A stretch of 33,691 nt of DNA from Rickettsiales bacterium. GTDB lineage: Bacteria; Pseudomonadota; Alphaproteobacteria; Rs-D84. The notes under the pieces were generated by a model. The model worked only from the letters and a program-made list of their open reading frames with translations, was not told the DNA's origin and searched no databases. The DNA is taken from positions 1 through 33,691 of the forward strand of contig JAIRZE010000096.1 of NCBI GenBank assembly GCA_031267375.1, read 5' to 3'. This document shows, one piece after another, positions 3,115 through 33,003 of this stretch; the stretch's first letter is position 1, and every line of letters begins with the position of its first letter. The position numbers and the translations under genes were made by a program.

Positions 3115-4008
3115 ATGTCATCAATTTTGGTTTTCCCGGGCCAAGGCAGCCAGTTCGTCGGTATGGGAAAAGAACTTTATGATAATTATCCCGCTGCACG
3201 CGAAGTCTTTGACGCGGTGGATGATGCCCTGGGGCAAAAACTTTCAGAGATTATTTTCAACGGCCCTATGGATGAACTGACGCTGACCGCGAATGTCCAG
3301 CCGGCTATCTTCGCCGTATCCTTGGCTATGCTGAAAGCGTCCGGCGCAGCATTGCCGGAATTTGTCGCCGGGCATTCATTGGGCGAATACAGCGCGCTTT
3401 GCGCCGCCGGCGCGCTTGGGGTGGCGGACACCGCGAAATTGCTGCGCCTGCGCGGGAATGCTATGCAGGAAGCGGTGCCGGTGGGCCTGGGGCTGACCGC
3501 AGTAATAATCAGCAATGAGCAATTAGCAATTAGCAATTTGTGCGCTAGGGCCGAATCGGAAACAGGTGAAATAGTTGATGTCGCAAATGACAATTCCCCC
3601 GGTCAGGTTGTAATTTCAGGGGCCAAGGCCGCGGTGGAACGCGCTATGGAACTTGCGAAAGAGCAGGGCGCAAAACGCGCTATGCCGCTGCAACTCTCGG
3701 CGCCGGTGCATTGCCGATTGCAGGAACCGACCGCTTCAATTCTTCGCGCGGCAATTGCCGGGACAGAATTCCGCGCGCCGGCCGCGACATTTATTTCAAA
3801 CCGCACTGCGGCGCCGATGACGGATGTTTCAGAGATAAAAGAATCGCTTGTCTATCAGATAACGCACGGTGTGCGCTGGCGCGAAACCATACTGTCGCTG
3901 CCAGGACTTGGGATAACAGAAACCGTGGAAGTTGGTCCAGGGAATGTTTTAACGGGCCTGACCACGCGAATCGTTCCGGAATTAACAGCAAGAAAATTGG
4001 AGATATAA
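3115..4008 (+). CDS. fabD: malonyl-CoA:ACP transacylase
   Basis: FPGQGSQ, GHSLGEY, ANDNSPGQVVISG, EVGPG; start moved to ATG 3115 after AAGGAG. Confidence 0.96.
   Translation: MSSILVFPGQGSQFVGMGKELYDNYPAAREVFDAVDDALGQKLSEIIFNGPMDELTLTANVQPAIFAVSLAMLKASGAALPEFVAGHSLGEYSALCAAGALGVADTAKLLRLRGNAMQEAVPVGLGLTAVIISNEQLAISNLCARAESETGEIVDVANDNSPGQVVISGAKAAVERAMELAKEQGAKRAMPLQLSAPVHCRLQEPTASILRAAIAGTEFRAPAATFISNRTAAPMTDVSEIKESLVYQITHGVRWRETILSLPGLGITETVEVGPGNVLTGLTTRIVPELTARKLEI
3506..3540. repeat. CAATTAG-family array in frame in fabD (ISNEQLAISNL)
   Basis: TAATCAG CAATGAG CAATTAG CAATTAG CAATTTG. Confidence 0.9.
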
Positions 4009-4745: not shown

Positions 4746-4849
4746 AAATGAAAAGTGAAAAATGAAAAATAAATCCGGCGTTGCCGGATTTTTTAATTTC
4801 GCAAAATTGCGCCAGCAATTTTGTATTTCTCACTTTTCATTTTTCATTT
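4746..4849. repeat. inverted AAATGAA/TTTTCAT heptamer arms enclosing two hairpins
   Basis: Arms at 4746-4770 and 4826-4849; right arm contains the mnmG stop codon. Confidence 0.8.
4771..4794. terminator. terminator between convergent fabG and mnmG
   Basis: AAATCCGGC-GTT-GCCGGATTT plus T-tract. Confidence 0.8.
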
Positions 4850-6613
4850 CTTTACCGCCCGCAGCACCGCGATTATTCCCGCCGGCGTCATTCCCTGAAT
4901 TCTTGACAATGCCGCGATATTTTCCGGCCGCGCGCGGCTGAGTTTTTCTTTCAATTCATTCGTCAGGCCCGAAAGCAAAGAATAGTCAAACGCACCCGGA
5001 ATTTTTATATTTTTATCATTGTTATAGCGTGCGATCTCTCGGCTCTGGCGGGCGATGTATCCGGCATATATTTTGTCGTTATTTGTGATTTCAGATTTAT
5101 GATTTGCGAATTGCCTTTCGCATTCTTCCGCTGAAATCAATCTGGCCGCGACCGCCATTTCGCCCAGTCGGGCGATAGCATTATCGGCGCGCAGCTGCAA
5201 TCTGTATTCCGCGCGCGATGTGAACATACGATAGGGCTCGTCAATGCCCAGCGTCGTTATATCGTCAATCATCACGCCGATCATAGAGTTTGTGCGGTCA
5301 AGATTCAGGGCAAGACTGCCTTTTGACTTTTGACTTTTGCCCTCTGCGGCGCAAGCCGCGGCATTCGCCCCCGCGACCAGGCCCTGGGCGGCGGCTTCTT
5401 CATACCCGCTGGTGCCGTTTATTTGGCCGGCAAAGAACAATCCCGGAATATCTTTGCTTTCCAGATTTGCTTTCAAAGCGCGCGCGTCAATCGCGTCGTA
5501 TTCTATCGCATATCCATAGCGGGCAACGCGGCAATTTTCCAATCCCGGAATAGTGCGCAGAAATTTGTCCTGAACCAATTCGCCGAACGAAGTGGATAAT
5601 CCGTTGGGATAAATTAAATCAGAATCCAGACCTTCGGGTTCCAGGAAAATATGATGCGACTTGTGCTCTGGAAAACGCATAACCTTGTCTTCCAGGGACG
5701 GGCAATAGCGCGGGCCTATGCCCTGAATTGTTCCGTTGTACATCGGCGCGTCCGCAATATTGCCCTGTATTATTTGATGAGTCTCTTCCGTCGTATGCGT
5801 GATGAAACAGGAAATGGGCAAATGGTCAGATGGACAAATGGACATTTCGCTTTGTTCCTGCCCGTCTGTCCTTTTGCCCATTTGTCCTTCACTAAACCAA
5901 TTATGATTTTCTTCCGACGGCTGCGGCTCGCACACATTAAAATCTATACTGTCGGCATACAGACGCGCAGGCGTTCCGGTCTTTAAGCGCAGAATAGCAA
6001 AACCGGCTTTTCGCAATATTTCTGAAATATTTGCATCAGGCTCTTGATATGTCCCGTCGTCTTGCAAGCGCCCTGTTGGAATGCGCCGGGCCCCGCGCGT
6101 GGCGACACCGCGCAGAAAAGTCCCGGTTGTCAGCACCAATGCCTTTGCCCGGTATTTGTTATTTATGATTTTATTTTCCAGATCCAGCGATTGAACAGAC
6201 TCATAGATAATGGACAAAAGGTCAGATGGACAAAAGGACATTTTGTTTTGTTCCTGTCCTTTTGTCCTTTTGTCCTTTTGTCCTTTTAATAGCTCTTTTA
6301 CCACTTCCCGGTAAAGATTACGGTCTATCTGGGCCCGCAGAGCCTGTGTGGCGGCGCCGTGCGTGGAATTCAGCAGCCGCCAGTGAATGCCGGCGCGATC
6401 TGCGGCGCGCGGCATAATCCCGCCCAGCGCGGCCATTTCTGCAATCATTTGGGACTTTCCCGGCCCGCCCAGGGACGGATTGCAGGACATAGCGCCCAGA
6501 TCGCTTTCGGACTTTGTAAGCAGCAGGGTCTTTGCGCCAATGCGCGCGGCGGCAGCGGCGGCTTCAACGCCTGCGTGTCCGCCGCCGATAATAATGACAT
6601 CAAATTCATTCAT
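4844..6613 (-). CDS. mnmG: tRNA uridine 5-carboxymethylaminomethyl modification enzyme MnmG/GidA
   Basis: GGGHAG, MSCNPS.GG, RLKTGTP, GPRYCPSLEDK, GQINGTSGYEEAAAQG, EPYRMFTSRAEYRL. Confidence 0.97.
   Translation of the reverse strand: MNEFDVIIIGGGHAGVEAAAAAARIGAKTLLLTKSESDLGAMSCNPSLGGPGKSQMIAEMAALGGIMPRAADRAGIHWRLLNSTHGAATQALRAQIDRNLYREVVKELLKGQKDKRTKGQEQNKMSFCPSDLLSIIYESVQSLDLENKIINNKYRAKALVLTTGTFLRGVATRGARRIPTGRLQDDGTYQEPDANISEILRKAGFAILRLKTGTPARLYADSIDFNVCEPQPSEENHNWFSEGQMGKRTDGQEQSEMSICPSDHLPISCFITHTTEETHQIIQGNIADAPMYNGTIQGIGPRYCPSLEDKVMRFPEHKSHHIFLEPEGLDSDLIYPNGLSTSFGELVQDKFLRTIPGLENCRVARYGYAIEYDAIDARALKANLESKDIPGLFFAGQINGTSGYEEAAAQGLVAGANAAACAAEGKSQKSKGSLALNLDRTNSMIGVMIDDITTLGIDEPYRMFTSRAEYRLQLRADNAIARLGEMAVAARLISAEECERQFANHKSEITNNDKIYAGYIARQSREIARYNNDKNIKIPGAFDYSLLSGLTNELKEKLSRARPENIAALSRIQGMTPAGIIAVLRAVKK
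5081..5108. repeat. ATTTNNG heptamer array in frame in mnmG (ANHKSEITN)
   Basis: ATTTGTG ATTTCAG ATTTATG ATTTGCG. Confidence 0.7.
5320..5347. repeat. CTTTTGA heptamer array in frame in mnmG (AEGKSQKSK)
   Basis: CTTTTGA CTTTTGA CTTTTGC CCTCTGC. Confidence 0.8.
5812..5889. mobile_element. ~78 bp palindromic octamer-armed element, copy A, in frame in mnmG
   Basis: GGACAAAT-type left arm, spacer TTTCGCTTTGTTCC, inverted right arm; encodes GQMGKRTDGQEQSEMSICPSDHLPI. Confidence 0.75.
6210..6287. mobile_element. ~78 bp palindromic octamer-armed element, copy B, in frame in mnmG
   Basis: GGACAAAA-type left arm, spacer TTTTGTTTTGTTCC, inverted right arm; encodes KGQKDKRTKGQEQNKMSFCPSDLLSI. Confidence 0.75.
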
Positions 6614-10500: not shown

Positions 10501-10686
10501 CTGGATGTGTCTGACCGCATACATCTGACCGTCGCAGGCGACGCGGAAATGATAGCCGCGTTCCGCGCACACGAGCCGCGGATTGCGGAAGATGTCCTGG
10601 CGCTGGATATAAACTATTCTGACGGCGAACAGGAACACAAGACAGAGATTGAAAATCACAAGTTTTCAATAAAGATTGAAAAATGA
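7588..10686 (+). CDS. ileS: isoleucine--tRNA ligase, type 2
   Basis: LPHYGH, GWDCHGLP, AWTTTPWTL, YPHCWR, QTRGWF, KMSKS; long type-2 C-terminus without Zn finger. Confidence 0.97.
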   Translation: MSKAKHYPEINARADFPKLEKEILAFWDAEKIFNQTIENRASAPEYVFYDGPAFGNGLPHYGHILTSYVKDLVPRYQTMRGKKVPRNIGWDCHGLPAELEAEKYLKISGKAEIAKFGIKEFNAVCTERVQMYVGEWEKFLTRMGRWIDYSDTYRTMDLNYTESVIWAFKKLYDKGLIYEGTYSIWYSYGAESTVSNSETKQDDCYREREDTSVTVSFLLDEEFDGKPTHILAWTTTPWTLVANFALCVGEDIDYAVMEENNQYYVIGDKARERYKQQLQNASFVKTVKGRDLVGKTYTPLFDFFGDVKHAFKVVSADYVTIDDGTGIVHLAPFGEEDLIIMEREAISWHAPVDSQGKFTKQVGQYAGMLVFDAIDPIVSDLKKSGKLIKKEQYRHMYPHCWRTGVPLINMPLNSWYVAVDKFRDRIGELNKKIDWIPDHIRDGQMGKWLAGARPWAISRSRFFGAPIPVWKSDNPEYPRIDVYGSIAELERDFGIKITDFHRPYIDELTRPNPDDPTGKSMMRRIPEVLDCWFESGAMPFASKHYPFENKDWFDSHFPADFIVEYIAQTRGWFYNMMILATALFDNEPFKTSLCHGVVLGNDGKKMSKSLRNYPDPMDVIETLGSDSLRWFLMSSTILSGGNMSVAREDIAKSAREVIMPLWNTFYFFTLYANAEGIKAKEIATATDPLDKYILSKLRTMVLRVTELLDASRINEAAPLFSAFMEILNNWYIRRSRPRFWDGKDTAAFDTLYTVLTVLSKALAPYMPMTAEFIYKSLTGDKSVHLQNWPDVSAIAENHNIEKAMDIVQSVVAVGKALRENARLRNRLPLAKMTIAGADLSEYADIIKDELNVKSVEFTTNISSVADSFVYLITPKIGERLGGALKEIIPAVKAGNYEIKDGQLYVLCPSSFVLRPSEYENRLTVKPGITGAALPDNTAVVVLDTNLTPELIAEGLANDALRFIQDTRKLVGLDVSDRIHLTVAGDAEMIAAFRAHEPRIAEDVLALDINYSDGEQEHKTEIENHKFSIKIEK
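10300..10334. repeat. GTCCTTC heptamer array in frame in ileS (VLCPSSFVLRPS)
   Basis: GTCCTTT plus GTCCTTC x4. Confidence 0.92.
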
Positions 10687-11333
10687 TGAATCCGGAAACT
10701 TATTTCAAAATAATGCCGCAGCACTTGGATATGACGGTGCGCACGGAATTGTATTATGTGAACGAATTCACTTTCGCCGTCGCCGTCATTCTTTCCGCCC
10801 AGGCGACCGACAAGAAAGTAAATGAAATTACCCCGGCGCTTTTTGCGGTCGCTGATACGCCGGAAGCAATGCTTACACTCAGTGAATCCGGCTTGAAAGA
10901 GCATATAAAGGTTATTTCTTTTTTCAATAACAAGGCAAAGAATATCCTGGCATTGTCTGAACTGTTAAACAAAAGGACAGATGGGCAAAAGGACAAATGG
11001 ACATTTCCAGTAAAATACCACAATCGCGATGAATTGATGAAGCTGCCGGGCATAGGCCAGAAAACGGCAAATGTTATAATGAATGTTCTTTGGGGCGCGC
11101 CGACGATCGGCATAGACACCCACGCATTCCGCCTGGCGCACAGATTCGGCTGGGTCGGCGATTCTGATAATACGCCAGAGAAAGTAGAAGAAAAATTATT
11201 AAAATTGATTCCGAAAAAATACCACAATGCCGTGAATCATATTATGGTCCTGCACGGGCGATATATCTGCAAGGCGCAGAAACCTTTATGCGCGGATTGC
11301 CCGGTGAATAAATTTTGTCCTGCGCGGACTTGA
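10683..11333 (+). CDS. nth: endonuclease III
   Basis: LSAQATD, LPGIGQKTAN, IDTH, C-x6-C-x2-C-x5-C Fe-S motif. Confidence 0.96.
   Translation: MMNPETYFKIMPQHLDMTVRTELYYVNEFTFAVAVILSAQATDKKVNEITPALFAVADTPEAMLTLSESGLKEHIKVISFFNNKAKNILALSELLNKRTDGQKDKWTFPVKYHNRDELMKLPGIGQKTANVIMNVLWGAPTIGIDTHAFRLAHRFGWVGDSDNTPEKVEEKLLKLIPKKYHNAVNHIMVLHGRYICKAQKPLCADCPVNKFCPART
10970..11003. repeat. GGACAAA(A/T) octamer array in frame in nth (KRTDGQKDKWT)
   Basis: CAAAAGGA CAGATGGG CAAAAGGA CAAATGGA CA. Confidence 0.88.
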
Positions 11334-15865: not shown

Positions 15866-16687
15866 ATGGAAATTAAAAAATTATCTTCGCGAATTTATAC
15901 CTTGGCCAAGGCCGGCGTCGCGGCGGCCATTCTGCCCGTTTTTTTGATTTACATTATGATTGACAAGCCAGATTACAAAGTTATGAACGCTGCCGCCCAT
16001 ATAGTCGTTCCCGCGGCCGGATTTGTCGCAGACGGCGCGACCTGGCCGATTCGCATCGTCGGCCGCGCCGCCGCCAATATCAGAGAGCTTTCGTCCCTGC
16101 GCGGCGAAAATGCGGAATTGCGCGCGCGACTGGATGCGGCCCAGGCCCGCAGTGCGGAGTGCGATATTCTGATCTCGGAAAATCAAAAGCTGGCGAAAGA
16201 GCTGGATATGGCGCGCGATGTTCCGCAAAAAACAATAGTGGCGCAGGTGATTCACGATAATACCGCGTTTCATCACAGCTCTTTCACAATATCCAAGGGA
16301 ACGGAATCCGGCATAGCGCCCGGAATGGCGGTCGTATCTTTTCAGGGATTTCTGGTCGGCATAGTCTCGTCCGCGGGCCAAACTTTTGCAAAAGTCCGCA
16401 GCCTTTATGATGCGAAATCAAATATACCCGTTCGTATCGCTGGCAGTGAGATTTATGGATTCCTGTCCGGCAACGGCGCGGCCGCGCCGACGATCGGATT
16501 TTTCAATGATCCGGAATTTCAAAATACAAAAGGGCTGAAATTGGTGTCTTCCGGGATCCGCGGCACTTTGCCCGGCGGATTGCCTGTCGGCACGACCGGC
16601 AAAGGCAGCGATGTAGAGGTCGCGCCTTTTTCACAGTCAACCGAGGTTATGGTCCTGGTCTTTGATGATAAAACGAAATACAAATGA
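15866..16687 (+). CDS. mreC: rod shape-determining protein MreC
   Basis: N-terminal TM helix, coiled coil (LRGENAELR), KG...GIAPGMAVV..GFLVG, SSG..G..P.GLPVG; context. Confidence 0.9.
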   Translation: MEIKKLSSRIYTLAKAGVAAAILPVFLIYIMIDKPDYKVMNAAAHIVVPAAGFVADGATWPIRIVGRAAANIRELSSLRGENAELRARLDAAQARSAECDILISENQKLAKELDMARDVPQKTIVAQVIHDNTAFHHSSFTISKGTESGIAPGMAVVSFQGFLVGIVSSAGQTFAKVRSLYDAKSNIPVRIAGSEIYGFLSGNGAAAPTIGFFNDPEFQNTKGLKLVSSGIRGTLPGGLPVGTTGKGSDVEVAPFSQSTEVMVLVFDDKTKYK

Positions 16688-16749
16688 TGGACAAAAGGGC
16701 ATAAGGACAAAAGGTCATTGTCCTTATGTCCTTATGTCCTTATGTCCAT
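16687..16749. repeat. spacerless palindrome of octamer arms between mreC and mreD
   Basis: ATGGACAAAAGGGCATAAGGACAAAAGGTCA / TGTCCTTA x3 TGTCCAT. Confidence 0.9.
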
Positions 16750-16752
16750 TTT

Positions 16753-24160: not shown

Positions 24161-24262
24161 AGGAGCAGGAATCAGGAGCAGGGACTAGGAATTATAATTG
24201 TGTGAAAAGAATTATCACAAATTCGGTATACTAGTCCCCGCCCCTAATCCCTGCTCCTAATT
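24161..24262. repeat. inverted AGGAGC/AGGAATC arms around AT-rich spacer between convergent dnaG and ychF
   Basis: Arms at 24161-24193 and 24231-24262; spacer contains TGAAAAGAATTATCAC. Confidence 0.8.
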
Positions 24263-25336: not shown

Positions 25337-25524
25337 AGCTCACTCCGTTCGCTAGCCACCAGCCATCAGCCCATAGTCGCCAGCCCATAGTTAATTAAGT
25401 TATTGTAAATATATATTTAATAAATTACAATAAAAATGACTAACTTACTATGGGCTGACGGTTATAAGCTGATAGCTATGGGCTATGGGCTGTGGGCTGG
25501 CGGCTATGGGCTGGCGGCTATGGG
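25337..25524. repeat. inverted CTATGGG/CTGGCGG arms around AT-rich spacer, with RBS cassette
   Basis: Left arm at 25352-25391, right arm of 11 heptamers at 25448-25524. Confidence 0.9.
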
Positions 25525-26197
25525 CTATCTTTGGGACGAATTTAACATAAAAACATTCCCCGCGCAAACTATTGTTTTCCGGGATGGCGTTTATCAGCCA
25601 GACTTGTCAACATTGCCGAACAATCTGAACTTTGATAAAAAACACGATTTGCCGGTTCATATCATATTTATTGGCGAAATAGCCGGTAAAAACGATATAT
25701 TTATTGAAATTTCGGCCGAAAATATGCAAGTCTTTTTCAGCGCAAAAATTACAAACAAAAAGCCGGCCTTTTTGAACATTTTTATCAAAAACACCGGTAA
25801 AAATTCTGAATTTTCCGGAAAAATATTGGCGCATAACCATTCAAGGCTGGAAATTAACGAAAAAGCCGGTCATTTTGCCAAAAACACCGGTATTTTTATG
25901 CATACCAGGTTAATCGCCGGCCCTGATTCAGACTCGCGATTATCCGCTATTGCCGAAATTGCCAAAAATTGTGAAAATTGCAAATCCGACATCGGGTTTT
26001 CCGCTTTGGCCGCGCAAAACGCAAAAATTATTTTCCAACCGGCGCAACAAATCGCATCCGCGCCAGATGACGCGACGCACAGCGCGGGGGTATGGCGTGC
26101 GACGGACGCCCAGATTGAATATTTGCGCGGCGGGGGCCTTTGCGAAACAGAGATAAAAGAAATTTTGCAAGAATCCTTTACAAATGACTTTCTTTGA
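25436..26197 (+). CDS. SufB/SufD-like Fe-S assembly protein (start uncertain: 25436, 25478 or 25520)
   Basis: C-terminal ATHSAGV....AQIEYLRGGGL.E.E.KEIL.ESF resembles the SufB/D C-terminus; beta-helix-like composition. Confidence 0.7.
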   Translation: MTNLLWADGYKLIAMGYGLWAGGYGLAAMGYLWDEFNIKTFPAQTIVFRDGVYQPDLSTLPNNLNFDKKHDLPVHIIFIGEIAGKNDIFIEISAENMQVFFSAKITNKKPAFLNIFIKNTGKNSEFSGKILAHNHSRLEINEKAGHFAKNTGIFMHTRLIAGPDSDSRLSAIAEIAKNCENCKSDIGFSALAAQNAKIIFQPAQQIASAPDDATHSAGVWRATDAQIEYLRGGGLCETEIKEILQESFTNDFL

Positions 26198-30234: not shown

Positions 30235-30326
30235 CAATGAACAATGAACAGTGAACAATGAACAATTTTTTTGTAAAAATATTTATAGCAATTCATTGTT
30301 CATTGTTCATTGTTCATTGTTCATTT
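30235..30326. repeat. inverted CAATGAA/TTCATTG arms overlapping the start of the next CDS
   Basis: 4 units at 30235-30262, 5 inverted units at 30292-30326. Confidence 0.92.
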
Positions 30327-31092: not shown

Positions 31093-32403
31093 TTACTTCC
31101 CCAAGCACAATTGTCCGAATACCGCATCAGCTATTTCAGAGGCTTCAATAACGCCCAGTATCTGGCCTATTTCATCGCTTGCGATTCTTATATGCTCTGC
31201 AAACAAATCCATATTCGCTGATTGTTTGCCGGCCATTTCCAATTCTTCCGCGGCTGCAATCAAATGCGCCCGCGCCCGCTGATTTACATTTATATCCGAT
31301 TCGGCGCCGTCCAGCGCGTTATGTATTTTTTGTTTTATCAATTCCAGCAATTCCGGAATGCCAGCGCCGGTAAGGGCCGATACAGAAAGGACAAAAGGAC
31401 AGATGGACAAATGGGCAGAAGTGTCGGATAAGTCAGATTTATTATAAACAATTATCTCGTTATTATTTGTATTGTCCTTTTGTCCTTTTGTCCTTTTGTC
31501 CATTACTTTTATCACTAAATCTGCGTTTTTAATTTCAGCGTTGGTTTTTTCTATGCCGATTTTTTCTATGACATCGTCCGTTTCGCGCAAGCCCGCGGTA
31601 TCCGTCAGCCGGACCAAATACCCGTCAATATCCAATTCCGCGCTTATCGCGTCGCGCGTAGTGCCAGGAATATCTGAAACTATGGCCCGCGATTCCCCAA
31701 CCAGCCGATTGAACAAAGACGATTTTCCGGCGTTTGTTTCCCCGGCCAAGACTATATTAAATCCGCTGCGGACCGCGCGCGCCGCCGCATACCTGGAAAT
31801 GGCTCCGCTGATTTCTGTGTGCAGAGCGCTTGCGCGTGCCAATAATTTATCCTTTATATTTTCCGGCAATTCATCCTTTGGATAATCCAGAATCGCGGCG
31901 GCGTATGCTGCGATCTCTATCATCTGCGCGCGCCAGTTTTCATAAGCCGCGCTGTCTGATCCCGTCATAGATTTCAGCGCCGCGGCGCGCTGTTTGTCCG
32001 TGCGCGCGGATAATAATCCGGCCAGTCCGTCCGCCGCCACCAGATCCATTTTGTTATTTTGAAAAGCGCGGCGCGTGAACTCTCCCGGCTCTGCCAGGCG
32101 AAATCCCTGGCCGCGCAGGAATTCATAAACTTTTTCTATAACAGCATAGCTGCCGTGGGTATGCAGTTCGATCACATCTTCGCCGGTAAAGGAACTCGGC
32201 GCCTGGAAATAAATCGCAATGCATTGATCAATAGGTCCGCCCCCATTATCGCGCAGATTTATCAAATAAGCGCGTCGCGGAATTATGTCGCCGCTTTGAA
32301 TTATCTTTGAAAAAAATTCGCGCAAGCCAGTCCCGCTGATGCGAATCACTGCAACGCCGGCTTTGCCGTGGCCCGAAGATAATGCGAATATAGTATCTGT
32401 CAT
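31093..32403 (-). CDS. mnmE: tRNA modification GTPase MnmE/TrmE
   Basis: DTIFALSS, SFTGEDV.E...HG, GETNAGKS, GTTRD, DTAG, NKSD, terminal LCLGK. Confidence 0.97.
   Translation of the reverse strand: MTDTIFALSSGHGKAGVAVIRISGTGLREFFSKIIQSGDIIPRRAYLINLRDNGGGPIDQCIAIYFQAPSSFTGEDVIELHTHGSYAVIEKVYEFLRGQGFRLAEPGEFTRRAFQNNKMDLVAADGLAGLLSARTDKQRAAALKSMTGSDSAAYENWRAQMIEIAAYAAAILDYPKDELPENIKDKLLARASALHTEISGAISRYAAARAVRSGFNIVLAGETNAGKSSLFNRLVGESRAIVSDIPGTTRDAISAELDIDGYLVRLTDTAGLRETDDVIEKIGIEKTNAEIKNADLVIKVMDKRTKGQKDNTNNNEIIVYNKSDLSDTSAHLSICPFVLSVSALTGAGIPELLELIKQKIHNALDGAESDINVNQRARAHLIAAAEELEMAGKQSANMDLFAEHIRIASDEIGQILGVIEASEIADAVFGQLCLGK
31386..31503. repeat. inverted octamer arms flanking the native NKSD motif of mnmE
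   Basis: Arms at 31386-31419 (AHLSICPFVLS) and 31472-31503 (MDKRTKGQKD). Confidence 0.9.
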
Positions 32404-33003
32404 TTATTTATTCGTTATTTCTTTCAATGCCAGCGGCACCAGTTTTTCAATTGAATATCCCGCGTATTCGCGAATCAGTTTCTGCACAGTTTCCAGCACA
32501 TCGCCGCGCCGGTATCCCAAAGATTCCAGCGCCGACATCAGATCGTTATATAAAGATGATGAATTGTCAGAAGGGCTGGTGTCCATTTGTCCTTTTGTCC
32601 ATTTGCCCATAATGACTTTCCCTTTTAATTCCAGACAGATTTTCTCGGCCACCTTTTTTCCAACCCCTGGCGCCGCGGTTAATGTTTTTGAATCATTCGT
32701 GGCCAATGCCGTCAGCAGAGCGTCTTCGTTAAATGCGCCCAGTATCGCCATTGCAACCTTTGGCCCCACGCCGGACACGCTGGTCAATTTATTGAATAAA
32801 TCCTGCTGGGCCGCGCTTGCGAATCCGAACAGGCGAATGGAATCTTCGCGAACGATTGTTTCTATCCATAATGTAGCCTGCTGTTCGTGGCCGGTGGCCC
32901 GCAGATTTGCCGGCACGAAAACTTTATATCCGACGCCGCCGCACATAAGGATTATGTAATCTTCGCCTGTGTAATCAAGAAATCCTTGCAATTTGCCTAT
33001 CAT
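32404..33003 (-). CDS. ruvA: Holliday junction branch migration protein RuvA
   Basis: MIGKLQG, GGVGY, VREDSIRLFGF, VSGVGPK.A, PGVGKK.AEKI.LELK, ALESLGY. Confidence 0.97.
   Translation of the reverse strand: MIGKLQGFLDYTGEDYIILMCGGVGYKVFVPANLRATGHEQQATLWIETIVREDSIRLFGFASAAQQDLFNKLTSVSGVGPKVAMAILGAFNEDALLTALATNDSKTLTAAPGVGKKVAEKICLELKGKVIMGKWTKGQMDTSPSDNSSSLYNDLMSALESLGYRRGDVLETVQKLIREYAGYSIEKLVPLALKEITNK
32580..32610. repeat. octamer array in frame in the RuvA interdomain linker (MGKWTKGQMD)
   Basis: TGTCCATT TGTCCTTT TGTCCATT TGCCCAT. Confidence 0.9.

Follow-up and report, generated by a model that had tools for sequence, protein, structure and literature searches.

In-frame selfish DNA is rare in essential bacterial genes, the textbook case being the Rickettsia palindromic elements (RPEs), which were reportedly described by Ogata et al. 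in 2000. The RPEs are about 100-150 bp in length and are not known to be composed of short tandem units or to have an associated gene.

Coxiella's intervening sequence (IVS) has terminal inverted repeats that form a 28-bp stem, tandem heptamers (GACAGAT) and an S23p open reading frame (ORF) (PMC4990558). ORF-bearing IVSs of the 23S rRNA, with an S23p/PF05635 gene, are noted in Coxiella burnetii and Leptospira, and RNase III is described as cutting rRNA intervening sequences within the stem (PMC4990558). The S23p/PF05635 protein is of unknown function (PMC11270868), and PF05635 resembles Avd, which serves diversity-generating retroelements as an accessory protein (PMC10053308). Rehm et al. 2015 (PMC4692102) present heptamer arrays that occur as inverted pairs in Xanthomonas (GGGAATC), together with the STRR-type heptamers of Nostoc. 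In that paper, these heptamers are G-rich, are read as quadruplex formers and are under-represented within coding sequence, and the repeats are tied to no gene, with zero occurrences of 'S23' and 'intervening' (PMC4692102).

Two hairpin inserts in mnmG

The window (the whole stretch of DNA that was analysed, 33,691 nt) includes a 589-aa minus-strand ORF that is identified as MnmG by Pfam (GIDA, E=1.2e-133) and by PDB 3cp2 (E=1.1e-140). The gene and its inserts are as follows:

4844..6613, minus strand: host gene mnmG, reading frame intact, with three lineage-specific inserts; Pfam GIDA and SAM_GIDA_C
6209..6286, minus strand: copy A of the octamer-armed hairpin (78 nt), with a loop at 6241-6254 between arms 6255-6286 and 6209-6240
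5813..5890, minus strand: copy B of the octamer-armed hairpin (78 nt), with a loop at 5845-5858 between arms 5859-5890 and 5813-5844
5320..5339, minus strand: heptamer array of another arm family (GGCAAAA type), single, from Tandem Repeats Finder

Both hairpins share one unit design of four octamers (GGACAAAW), a 14-nt loop and four inverted octamers. Two palindromic units of ~78 bp, with inverted arms of four octamers and 14-bp spacers identical at 12 of 14 positions, had been reported within mnmG in a preliminary description, and a repeat search of the window recovers them as a direct repeat (5813-5889 and 6209-6285, 87% identity). The arms of copy A (6209-6240 and 6255-6286) form a 32-nt inverted repeat that is 88% complementary with 14 nt between, the arms of copy B are equivalent inverted repeats, and the octamer arrays have a period of 8 with 4.1 copies per arm. 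The two loops, TTTCGCTTTGTTCC and TTTTGTTTTGTTCC, do agree at 12/14 positions. The hairpin starts are 396 nt apart (~400 bp in the preliminary description), which is 132 codons, and thus the copies have the same strand and frame, as had been claimed. The homologous 26-aa peptides noted at the outset correspond to MnmG residues 110-135 for copy A (KGQKDKRTKGQEQNKMSFCPSDLLSI) and 242-267 for copy B (EGQMGKRTDGQEQSEMSICPSDHLPI). Chance is excluded as the source of the octamer pattern in the window; the two-unit pattern has 30 matches compared to 0.31 expected, and 30 matches are reached in 0 of 100 shuffles.

Copy A is predicted to fold as RNA at -37.3 kcal/mol in the sense and -41.3 kcal/mol in the antisense orientation, and copy B at -31.2 and -34.8 kcal/mol, with z values of -5.2 to -9.1; none of 200 shuffles is as stable, on either strand. 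In an AlphaFold2 model of MnmG the fold is kept (pTM 0.77) and all three inserts are coil with pLDDT <50, including residues 113-126 of copy A, which have no secondary structure, and residues 244-263 of copy B. The third insert, GKSQKSKG (MnmG residues ~425-432, pLDDT <50 at 426-432), is encoded by the heptamer array; its extra 8 residues are missing from 17 of 18 MnmG homologues, and homologue L046 carries a 16-residue insert of its own there.

Five other octamer elements are found in the window:

31386..31504, minus strand: octamer arms (4+4 units) with a 55-nt loop, inside mnmE (31096-32403)
16686..16750, no strand given: short hairpin form, 4+4 octamers with a 1-nt loop
4142..4170, plus strand: solo octamer arm of 4 units, in frame in fabG and read GQMDKWTNGH; host Pfam adh_short
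10975..11003, plus strand: solo octamer arm of 4 units, lying in frame within a gene of the endonuclease III type (10680-11330); Pfam HhH-GPD
32580..32608, plus strand: solo octamer arm of 4 units, in an ORF (32300-32956) without a Pfam match

The mnmE host ORF has the Pfam domains TrmE_N, MnmE_helical and MMR_HSR1. The hairpin at 16686-16750 is probably intergenic, the longest ORF that spans it being only 104 codons.

Comparison with relatives

The preliminary description had raised the prospect that the two peptides align to native MnmG sequence. The central part of both is instead opposite gaps in 18/18 aligned MnmG homologues, and thus neither peptide is native. Copy A is opposite an 18-column gap in all 18, and copy B stands in for a native loop whose length is 10-17 residues at 71 of the 72 loci from relatives. 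The LepA and PyrG inserts are likewise missing from solved homologues, the LigA insert is missing from 3/3 alignable relatives, and RlmN has 23 residues between aligned blocks where relative G140 has 2. The net gain in length is below 26 residues in MnmG (+18 and +10 to +16), PyrG (+21), RlmN (about +21) and LigA (+19 to +23); thus, these are not clean insertion events, and at the MnmG and PyrG sites there is a loss of native residues and no duplication. Among the genome and metagenome contigs searched, no MnmG relative of >69% identity was found. Relatives assembled separately (L181) bear, at these MnmG loops, hairpins that belong to other families.

A hairpin family across the genome

The genome surveyed is a metagenome-assembled draft from a gut alphaproteobacterium (917 kb, 109 contigs, 78.5% complete). 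The genome-wide search for the element that had been suggested earlier reveals an octamer family of 100 arrays and 40 arm pairs (hairpins) on many contigs. The purine arm comes first in 40/40 of these pairs and 36/40 have 4+4 units, while the length of 78 nt is found in 18/40, on 14 contigs. The 18 copies of 78 nt have unit-variant order and fixed stem mismatches in common, one of them being A.C at stem pair 17/62 (18/18 copies), a pattern that independent slippage would not yield; the earlier view that the whole arm-spacer-arm unit was copied is supported by it. Their 32-nt stems have 21-28 Watson-Crick pairs, with about 25 typical. The two mnmG copies are 86% alike, and copy 6209 is 91% identical to a copy at C88:17773 and 90% identical to one at C85:4272. 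The mnmG copies are not duplicates of one another but two of the 40 genome-wide hairpins.

Arm cores are nearly invariant among the 78-nt copies, with a loop that is only 57% identical; the copy search demanded intact arm cores and, thus, the conservation of the arms derives in part from the search design. The junctions of the 18 copies of 78 nt display no target-site duplication, direct repeat or common target motif. Compensatory pairing specific to the copy was considered and rejected (25.4 Watson-Crick pairs within compared to 25.6 across copies, with 3746 of 5000 permutations at or above the observed value). Two arm pairs whose 'loops' measure 171 and 198 nt are separate adjoining elements and do not enclose cargo. 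The hairpins have no Rfam match at the gathering score, the sub-threshold matches being generic hairpin models, mostly of miRNA precursors. Two tRNAs are the only Rfam matches at that score.

The octamer hairpin pattern is found in 0/200 other genomes sampled in the same order. The 21-nt run of octamers is matched exactly in 66 stretches from many phyla, nearly all of which are one-sided arrays, and hairpins with a GGACA core occur in 43 stretches, mostly of Gemmatimonadales and Thermomicrobiales, in which unit tails and loops differ. The presence of the same element in other phyla was set aside, as the core was fixed by the search pattern and hence has no bearing on common descent.

Host genes and reading frame

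Pfam domains (E<=1e-5) are present in 19/20 and 13/21 of the host ORFs (two sets), which include Der, Fmt, UvrD, Lgt, RuvX, RsmG, PriA, RecR, PyrG, MgsA, GltX, Lnt, LigA, RecJ, LepA, RlmN and MnmE. Of the 18 copies of 78 nt, 14 reside within Pfam-supported housekeeping proteins (two of them in MnmG), and all 14 use one orientation and one frame (S0), with the peptide xGQKDKRTxGQ-xxxx-MSICPSxxLSx. At the junction of the loop with the right arm, the coding copies have an ATG (13) or a GTG (1) in phase with the host ORF. The GGACAAAW octamer is stop-free in all six frames, and most 78-nt copies have 4-5 of 6 frames open. For frames S1, A1 and A2, each free of stops in 15-16 of the 18 copies, stop codons are ruled out as the cause of single-frame use. 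Antisense reading gives hydrophobic peptides (GRAVY 0.0 to +0.5), compared to -1.2 for the sense frames. Hydrophobicity accounts for the orientation of the coding copies, not for S0 over S1; S1 is as open and as hydrophilic, and neither stops nor hydrophobicity give a reason for the 14:0 bias.

The arm families differ in their tolerance of genes. Families with stop-free units have 29/39 hairpins in ORFs of >=200 codons (random segments, 1082/1500), whereas families with stop-containing units have 7/43 (Fisher p=1.3e-7). Stop-free families are thus found in long ORFs at the random rate and stop-containing families are depleted, which indicates that the inserts are translated, and from these sequence statistics we infer translation in vivo.

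PF05635 cassettes

The octamer arms are also found in a full form, at C31:7174-7595, where they flank a 130-aa PF05635 gene (23S-rRNA-IVS protein, S23p, Avd-like four-helix bundle), an arrangement identical to that in the literature on rRNA IVSs with an ORF. This gene (C31:7173-7565) scores 58.2 bits for PF05635 compared to a cut-off of 33.8, and its protein matches PDB 2rld, an entry of five chains, at E=2.8e-15 over 114 residues. PF05635 proteins are not known to have an enzymatic activity, and the S23p/IVS family has, to our knowledge, lacked an assigned function since the 1990s. We count 8 PF05635 genes in the genome, each with its own inverted tandem-repeat arms. The arms of 8/8 score above all 840 shuffled controls, as do 16/20 in three relatives, and the five commonest array families of the genome are built from the arm units of five cassettes. 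A PF05635 gene is present in 12 of 24 sampled genomes of the bacterial family. This 0.9-Mb genome contains eight PF05635 paralogues alongside eight arm families.

The mnmG units, with a 14-nt loop only and no PF05635 ORF, are gene-less forms. The empty hairpins are linked to the C31 cassette by the arms only. The loops were considered as deletion remnants of the C31 interior and rejected (8 loops and the 14-nt consensus against 362 nt, with the fraction of shuffles reaching the score at 0.17-1.00). A 23S rRNA gene was not found in the 78.5%-complete assembly. The literature searched, in which subscription journals are mostly uncovered, includes no paper that connects PF05635 genes with tandem-repeat arms located outside rRNA, or with in-frame gene hairpins.

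Origin and fate of the inserts

The mnmG units are quite probably gene-less, IVS-type hairpin elements that act like RPEs and are read through in genes. Empty hairpins with C31-type arms would have spread to sites all over the genome, presumably by a copy-and-paste movement of the hairpin element, with the PF05635 protein perhaps acting in trans on the repeat of its own arms, which is the weakest step of the mechanism. As 78 nt equals 26 codons and the octamer is stop-free, copies inside genes leave the reading frame unbroken. In mnmG, translation would then generate two 26-residue, probably disordered loops at sites where a change in length is tolerated. By analogy to the rRNA elements, hairpin-bearing mRNAs may be cleaved by RNase III.

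That the hairpins are instead removed or skipped in RNA, by RNase III excision and rejoining or by ribosomal bypassing, such that the 26-residue peptides are never made, appears quite improbable. The architecture is like that of rRNA intervening sequences, which RNase III cuts in the stem (PMC4990558), an RNase III gene is encoded at C82:2746-3054, and 32-nt stems with about 25 Watson-Crick pairs are expected to fold strongly; however, removal predicts that stop-bearing families are tolerated in genes, where they are scarce compared to the stop-free families (7/43 and 29/39). All 14 coding copies are, in addition, open in the host frame and in the hydrophilic orientation only, which argues for a constraint at the protein level. 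We know of no rejoining of RNase III-cut mRNA in bacteria. Co-option, in which the mRNA hairpin tunes housekeeping expression (by RNase III sensitivity, pausing or restart at the in-phase ATG) or the Cys-Pro peptide is useful, is improbable as well. The uniform use of S0 (14/14) with its in-phase ATG or GTG, which neither stops nor hydrophobicity explain, and the nearly invariant arm cores beside a divergent loop are in its favor, but the hosts comprise 14 or more unrelated enzymes with the insert in variable loops, the insert is modelled as low-confidence coil, the pairing is not copy-specific, non-coding copies have the same sequence features as the coding copies, and the arm conservation is in part a product of the search.

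A purely local origin, by slippage and intragenic duplication inside mnmG with no dispersed element, would suit tandem octamers, which are prone to slippage, and two copies of one orientation and frame in a single gene, 396 nt apart. It is nevertheless highly improbable, as it is contradicted by forty hairpins of 4+4 design on many contigs, by mnmG copies that each match copies in other genes at least as well as they match each other, and by stem mismatches and an order of unit variants that are family-wide. It is extremely improbable that the hairpins are mis-joins or collapsed repeats of a metagenome-assembled genome. While the draft is in 109 contigs and 78.5% complete, the units are internal to contigs and reside in long open ORFs with conserved domains on either side in at least 14 genes, 78 nt is shorter than a typical read, and the hairpins of L181 at the same MnmG loops come from a separate assembly.

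Spread of a gene-less, translated hairpin element thus being preferred for mnmG, a wider proposal is advanced tentatively, and is rather doubtful: PF05635 proteins might be sequence-specific trans factors of pan-bacterial tandem-arm hairpin elements, each recognising its own 7-8-nt arm repeat and propagating or maintaining its own cassette and the gene-less copies. The rRNA IVSs would then be the rRNA-dwelling members, and stop-free families would colonise essential genes and replace native loops with new translated ones. The hairpin family would represent a second, unrelated RPE-like system, of high density, in a 0.9-Mb gut alphaproteobacterium, and would tie together the S23p/IVS proteins, the abundant bacterial inverted arrays of 7-8-nt units and the origin of lineage-specific loops in conserved proteins. 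Eight paralogue/arm pairs in one genome offer a direct route to testing own-arm recognition, and the stop-codon filter may serve as a natural experiment on which selfish sequences are tolerable inside the genes of a compact genome.

Comparison with known systems

Similarly to REP/REPIN-RAYT systems and MITEs, the elements are short, non-autonomous hairpins in tens of copies with a rare gene-associated copy. REPs differ in that they are intergenic, and the gene associated with the hairpins is not a known transposase; the Y1 transposase/RAYT family (PF01797) has 0 matches in the 78.5%-complete assembly. Terminal inverted repeats and many dispersed copies (40 hairpins) are shared with MITEs, whereas target-site duplications and a transposase parent with the same ends are not found, PF05635 being the only gene found between these arms. 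The heptamers of Xanthomonas and Nostoc are unlike the units described here, which are A-rich, stop-free and mostly within genes. For Avd and the C31 PF05635 protein, kinship extends no further than the fold family.

The closest likeness is to the IVSs, with which the hairpins share terminal inverted repeats and a stem of about 28-32 bp, tandem units of 7-8 nt (GACAGAT in Coxiella and GGACAGAT/GGACAAAW here), a PF05635 gene between the arms in the full form (C31 here) and ORF-less short forms. By contrast, known IVSs reside in rRNA helices and are excised by RNase III, whereas the copies described here are in protein genes or between genes, keep the frame and are apparently translated. With RPEs the hairpins share dispersal as palindromes that are in frame in housekeeping genes of a small alphaproteobacterial genome, are missing from orthologues and add a peptide without destroying the protein. 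The arms here are 4x8-nt arrays common to a PF05635 cassette, a difference from the RPEs as described. The term 'RPE-like coding element' of the preliminary description is therefore retained as a working description of an in-frame palindrome in housekeeping genes, but not as a statement of kinship; judged from the arms, the demonstrable kin appear to be IVS-type cassettes, with a PF05635 gene between tandem-repeat arms, rather than the RPEs of Rickettsia.

Hairpin units of mnmG

The mnmG gene of the window, which is contig C34 of a draft genome of 917,217 bases (109 contigs, 47% G+C, 78.5% completeness), carries two 78-nt hairpins and a smaller third insert:

4844..6613, minus strand: mnmG, 589 aa (Pfam GIDA, E=1.2e-133; PDB GidA/MnmG, E=1.1e-140)
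6209-6286, minus strand: 78-nt hairpin, copy A (site 1), four GGACAAAW-type octamers, 14-nt loop, four inverted octamers; MnmG residues 110-135
5813-5890, minus strand: 78-nt hairpin, copy B (site 2), same layout; MnmG residues 242-267
5320-5339, minus strand: third insert (site 3), 8 residues (GKSQKSKG), a solo heptamer array of a different family from the octamers

The preliminary description of two octamer-armed palindromes of ~78 bp, lying ~400 bp apart in one orientation and frame, with like spacers and 26-residue peptides, is borne out: the unit starts differ by 396 nt, 12/14 loop positions are identical and the two peptides are encoded as reported (element ends are placed to ~3 nt only). 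The octamer pattern has 30 matches in the window versus 0.31 expected, far above chance, and both units fold as RNA into strong hairpins (z-scores -5.2 to -9.1).

The units were inserted in this lineage. The closest MnmG sequences (61-69% identity) belong to uncultured Alphaproteobacteria of the gut, among them genomes from termite guts and Candidatus Enterousia. That the peptides might be native to MnmG was the proposed counter-test; the core of both lies opposite gaps in 18/18 homologues, in an alignment that gives site 1 a net gain of 18 residues. The native loop at site 2 is 10-17 residues long in 71/72 loci of relatives (some contigs counted in both collections) and 27 residues, almost entirely element-derived, in MnmG of the window. 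In an AlphaFold2 model based on 16 sequences, the MnmG fold is retained (pTM 0.77) and the three inserts come out as coil, with pLDDT <50 at residues 113-126, 244-263 and 426-432.

The octamer hairpin of this genome was found in 0/200 other genomes sampled from the order. One relative (L181, a metagenome contig, MnmG 66% identical) has heptamer-armed hairpins of its own, from two other families, in frame at sites 2 and 3; the site-2 hairpin replaces the entire 11-residue native loop, and the other lies at about 1269-1335. In a second relative (L004/L160), an octamer-armed hairpin lies at the start of mnmG. Thus, the same MnmG loops have been struck repeatedly by different families. In the GKSQKSKG loop, relatives L046 and L181 bear inserts of their own.

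A dispersed octamer family

A search for runs of a 5-nt core spaced 8 nt apart, with intact arm cores required for the census, recovers 100 octamer arrays in the genome: 40 arm pairs and 20 solo arms. Units are 4+4 in 36/40 pairs; 17 pairs have a 14-nt loop, 10 a loop of 1-2 nt and 12 one of 7-55 nt. The purine-rich arm comes first in 40/40 pairs and the reverse order never occurs. A further pair lies within the window:

31386-31504, minus strand: MnmE hairpin, in frame in mnmE (31096-32403), 4+4 octamer arms, 55-nt loop

MnmE is the partner enzyme of MnmG, and both bear in-frame hairpins with the same octamer arms.

The 78-nt copies number 18 (one without the 14-nt loop), are 67-91% identical to one another, and are dispersed copies of one sequence. 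Local duplication was considered as the origin of the mnmG pair and rejected: its members are 86% alike, and copy 6209 is nearer to C88:17773 (91%) and C85:4272 (90%) on other contigs, which makes the pair two independent family members. The earlier claim that the arm-loop-arm unit was copied whole stands, since stem mismatches are family-wide (e.g., A.C at pair 17/62 in 18/18 copies) and point to copying from a common source. Mean pairwise identity across the 18 copies is 57% in the loop and 83-87% in the arms, the arm figure being partly a search artefact.

Host genes and reading frame

Pfam domains are present on 19/20 and 13/21 host ORFs. The hosts include Der, Fmt, UvrD, Lgt, RuvX, RsmG, PriA, RecR, PyrG, MgsA, GltX, YbeY/Lnt, LigA, RecJ, LepA, RlmN, DciA, UvrB and DprA, with MnmE in the window. 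Fourteen of the 18 78-nt copies lie inside Pfam-supported proteins, a count that takes in C88:17329, which sits between YbeY and Lnt domains in one open frame and may instead be intergenic; two others are just upstream of mdh and a glycosyltransferase gene, and two are in short ORFs. At C88:16756-19194, the YbeY and Lnt domains share one 813-codon frame with three octamer hairpins, the first of which, between the two genes, may have fused them. The element is absent from solved homologues of LepA (net gain +31 residues) and PyrG (+21), from RlmN of a relative (G140; about +21) and from LigA of 3/3 alignable relatives (+19 to +23). Some native residues are usually lost at the element sites, in MnmG and other hosts alike.

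The units preserve frame and pass a protein-level filter. All 14 coding copies share one orientation and frame (xGQKDKRTxGQ-xxxx-MSICPSxxLSx). Stop codons do not force this choice, as a count of the copies, out of 18, that are open in each of the six frames gives 17, 16, 5, 13, 15 and 16. Hydrophobicity explains the single orientation: sense frames are hydrophilic (GRAVY about -1.2), antisense frames hydrophobic (0.0 to +0.5). Neither factor accounts for the 14:0 preference for sense frame S0 over S1; it is in S0 that the triplet at the loop/arm junction, ATG in 13 copies and GTG in the other, is in register with the host.

Were the hairpins removed ahead of translation, families with and without stop codons would be equally unfiltered, yet a filter is seen. 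The genome holds 234 heptamer and 98 octamer tandem arrays of three or more exact copies, and a generic finder yields 82 arm pairs, many other families having heptamer arms. Families whose units are stop-free on both strands have 29/39 hairpins in ORFs of 200 codons or more, matching the random baseline (1082/1500 segments), versus 7/43 for stop-bearing families (Fisher p=1.3e-7, copies not independent). Pre-translation removal is thus disfavoured, and the inserts are probably translated as disordered loops. As RNase III is encoded in the genome, some cleavage of the hairpin-bearing mRNAs is possible.

PF05635 cassettes and a possible mode of spread

The octamer units share their arms with a cassette, i.e., a PF05635 gene (S23p, Avd-like) between inverted tandem-repeat arms:

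C31:7173-7565: PF05635 gene of contig C31, 130-aa ORF (PDB 2rld, E=2.8e-15)

This ORF is flanked exactly by four GGACAAAW-type octamers on one side and four inverted octamers on the other. The cassette (within C31:6915-8400) begins at the enolase stop codon. The next ORF, which encodes a membrane-like protein of 68 aa and lies upstream of ssb, takes its start codon and its first ten residues (MSICPSVLLP) from the right arm of the cassette. The genome has eight PF05635 genes, each with its own arms, and the arm units of 5/8 cassettes are the five most abundant array families. For 8/8 of these genes the inverted flanking match scores above every one of the 840 shuffled controls, as it does for 16/20 in three relatives; among the relatives' other PF05635 genes, two score 13, the top shuffle score, and two lack arms. 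PF05635 genes occur in 12/24 other sampled genomes of the family and in 0/16 genomes sampled from other families of the order.

Hairpins or arrays at window 30235-30325, 24161-24261 and 25448-25528 have units matching the arms of other cassettes, on C90 (AACAATG type), C109 (13-mers) and C68 (GCTATGG 14-mers). Same-strand CAATTAG heptamer arrays occur at 2104-2136, 2405-2437, 2951-2984 and 3507-3538 (the last inside the fabD ORF), spaced 300-550 nt apart; genome-wide, 12 hairpins belong to this family, for which the assembly has no PF05635 cassette. The segment 26001-28000 has 37.6% G+C versus 45-53% in the rest of the window.

The units may have spread by a copy mechanism without target duplication, often deleting a few native codons, and the PF05635 protein may act on its own arms. 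A simple parent-to-derivative origin from the cassette is argued against by the loops, which show no resemblance to the C31 cassette interior and are less alike than the arms (57% versus 83-87%, the latter partly a search artefact), and by PF05635 itself, which to our knowledge has no known activity.

Comparison with known systems

RPEs are a functional analogue of the in-frame 78-nt hairpins. Our literature search found no paper tying gene-less hairpins inside protein-coding genes to PF05635 cassettes. Coding palindromes are also reported from nematomorph mitochondria, and MITEs from Coxiella. PARCELs, as presented in PMC2996958, are also palindromic coding repeats but of a different kind. 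The inverted heptamer arrays of Xanthomonas prefer four units, are mostly non-coding and were interpreted as quadruplex formers (Rehm et al. 2015, PMC4692102); that paper does not mention S23p. PF05635 is called uncharacterised in PMC11270868 and likened to Avd in PMC10053308.

A Gemmatimonadales genome has >25 hairpins whose octamer arms are of the GGACAGAT/ATCTGTCC type and whose loops measure about 10-14 nt, and Thermomicrobiales genomes have GGACAGAC and GGACAGGG versions (loci L272-L313). The published heptamer of the Coxiella 23S intervening sequence (IVS) is GACAGAT. As described in PMC4990558, that IVS comprises a 28-bp terminal stem cut internally by RNase III, tandem GACAGAT heptamers and an S23p ORF, the same design as that of the C31 cassette.
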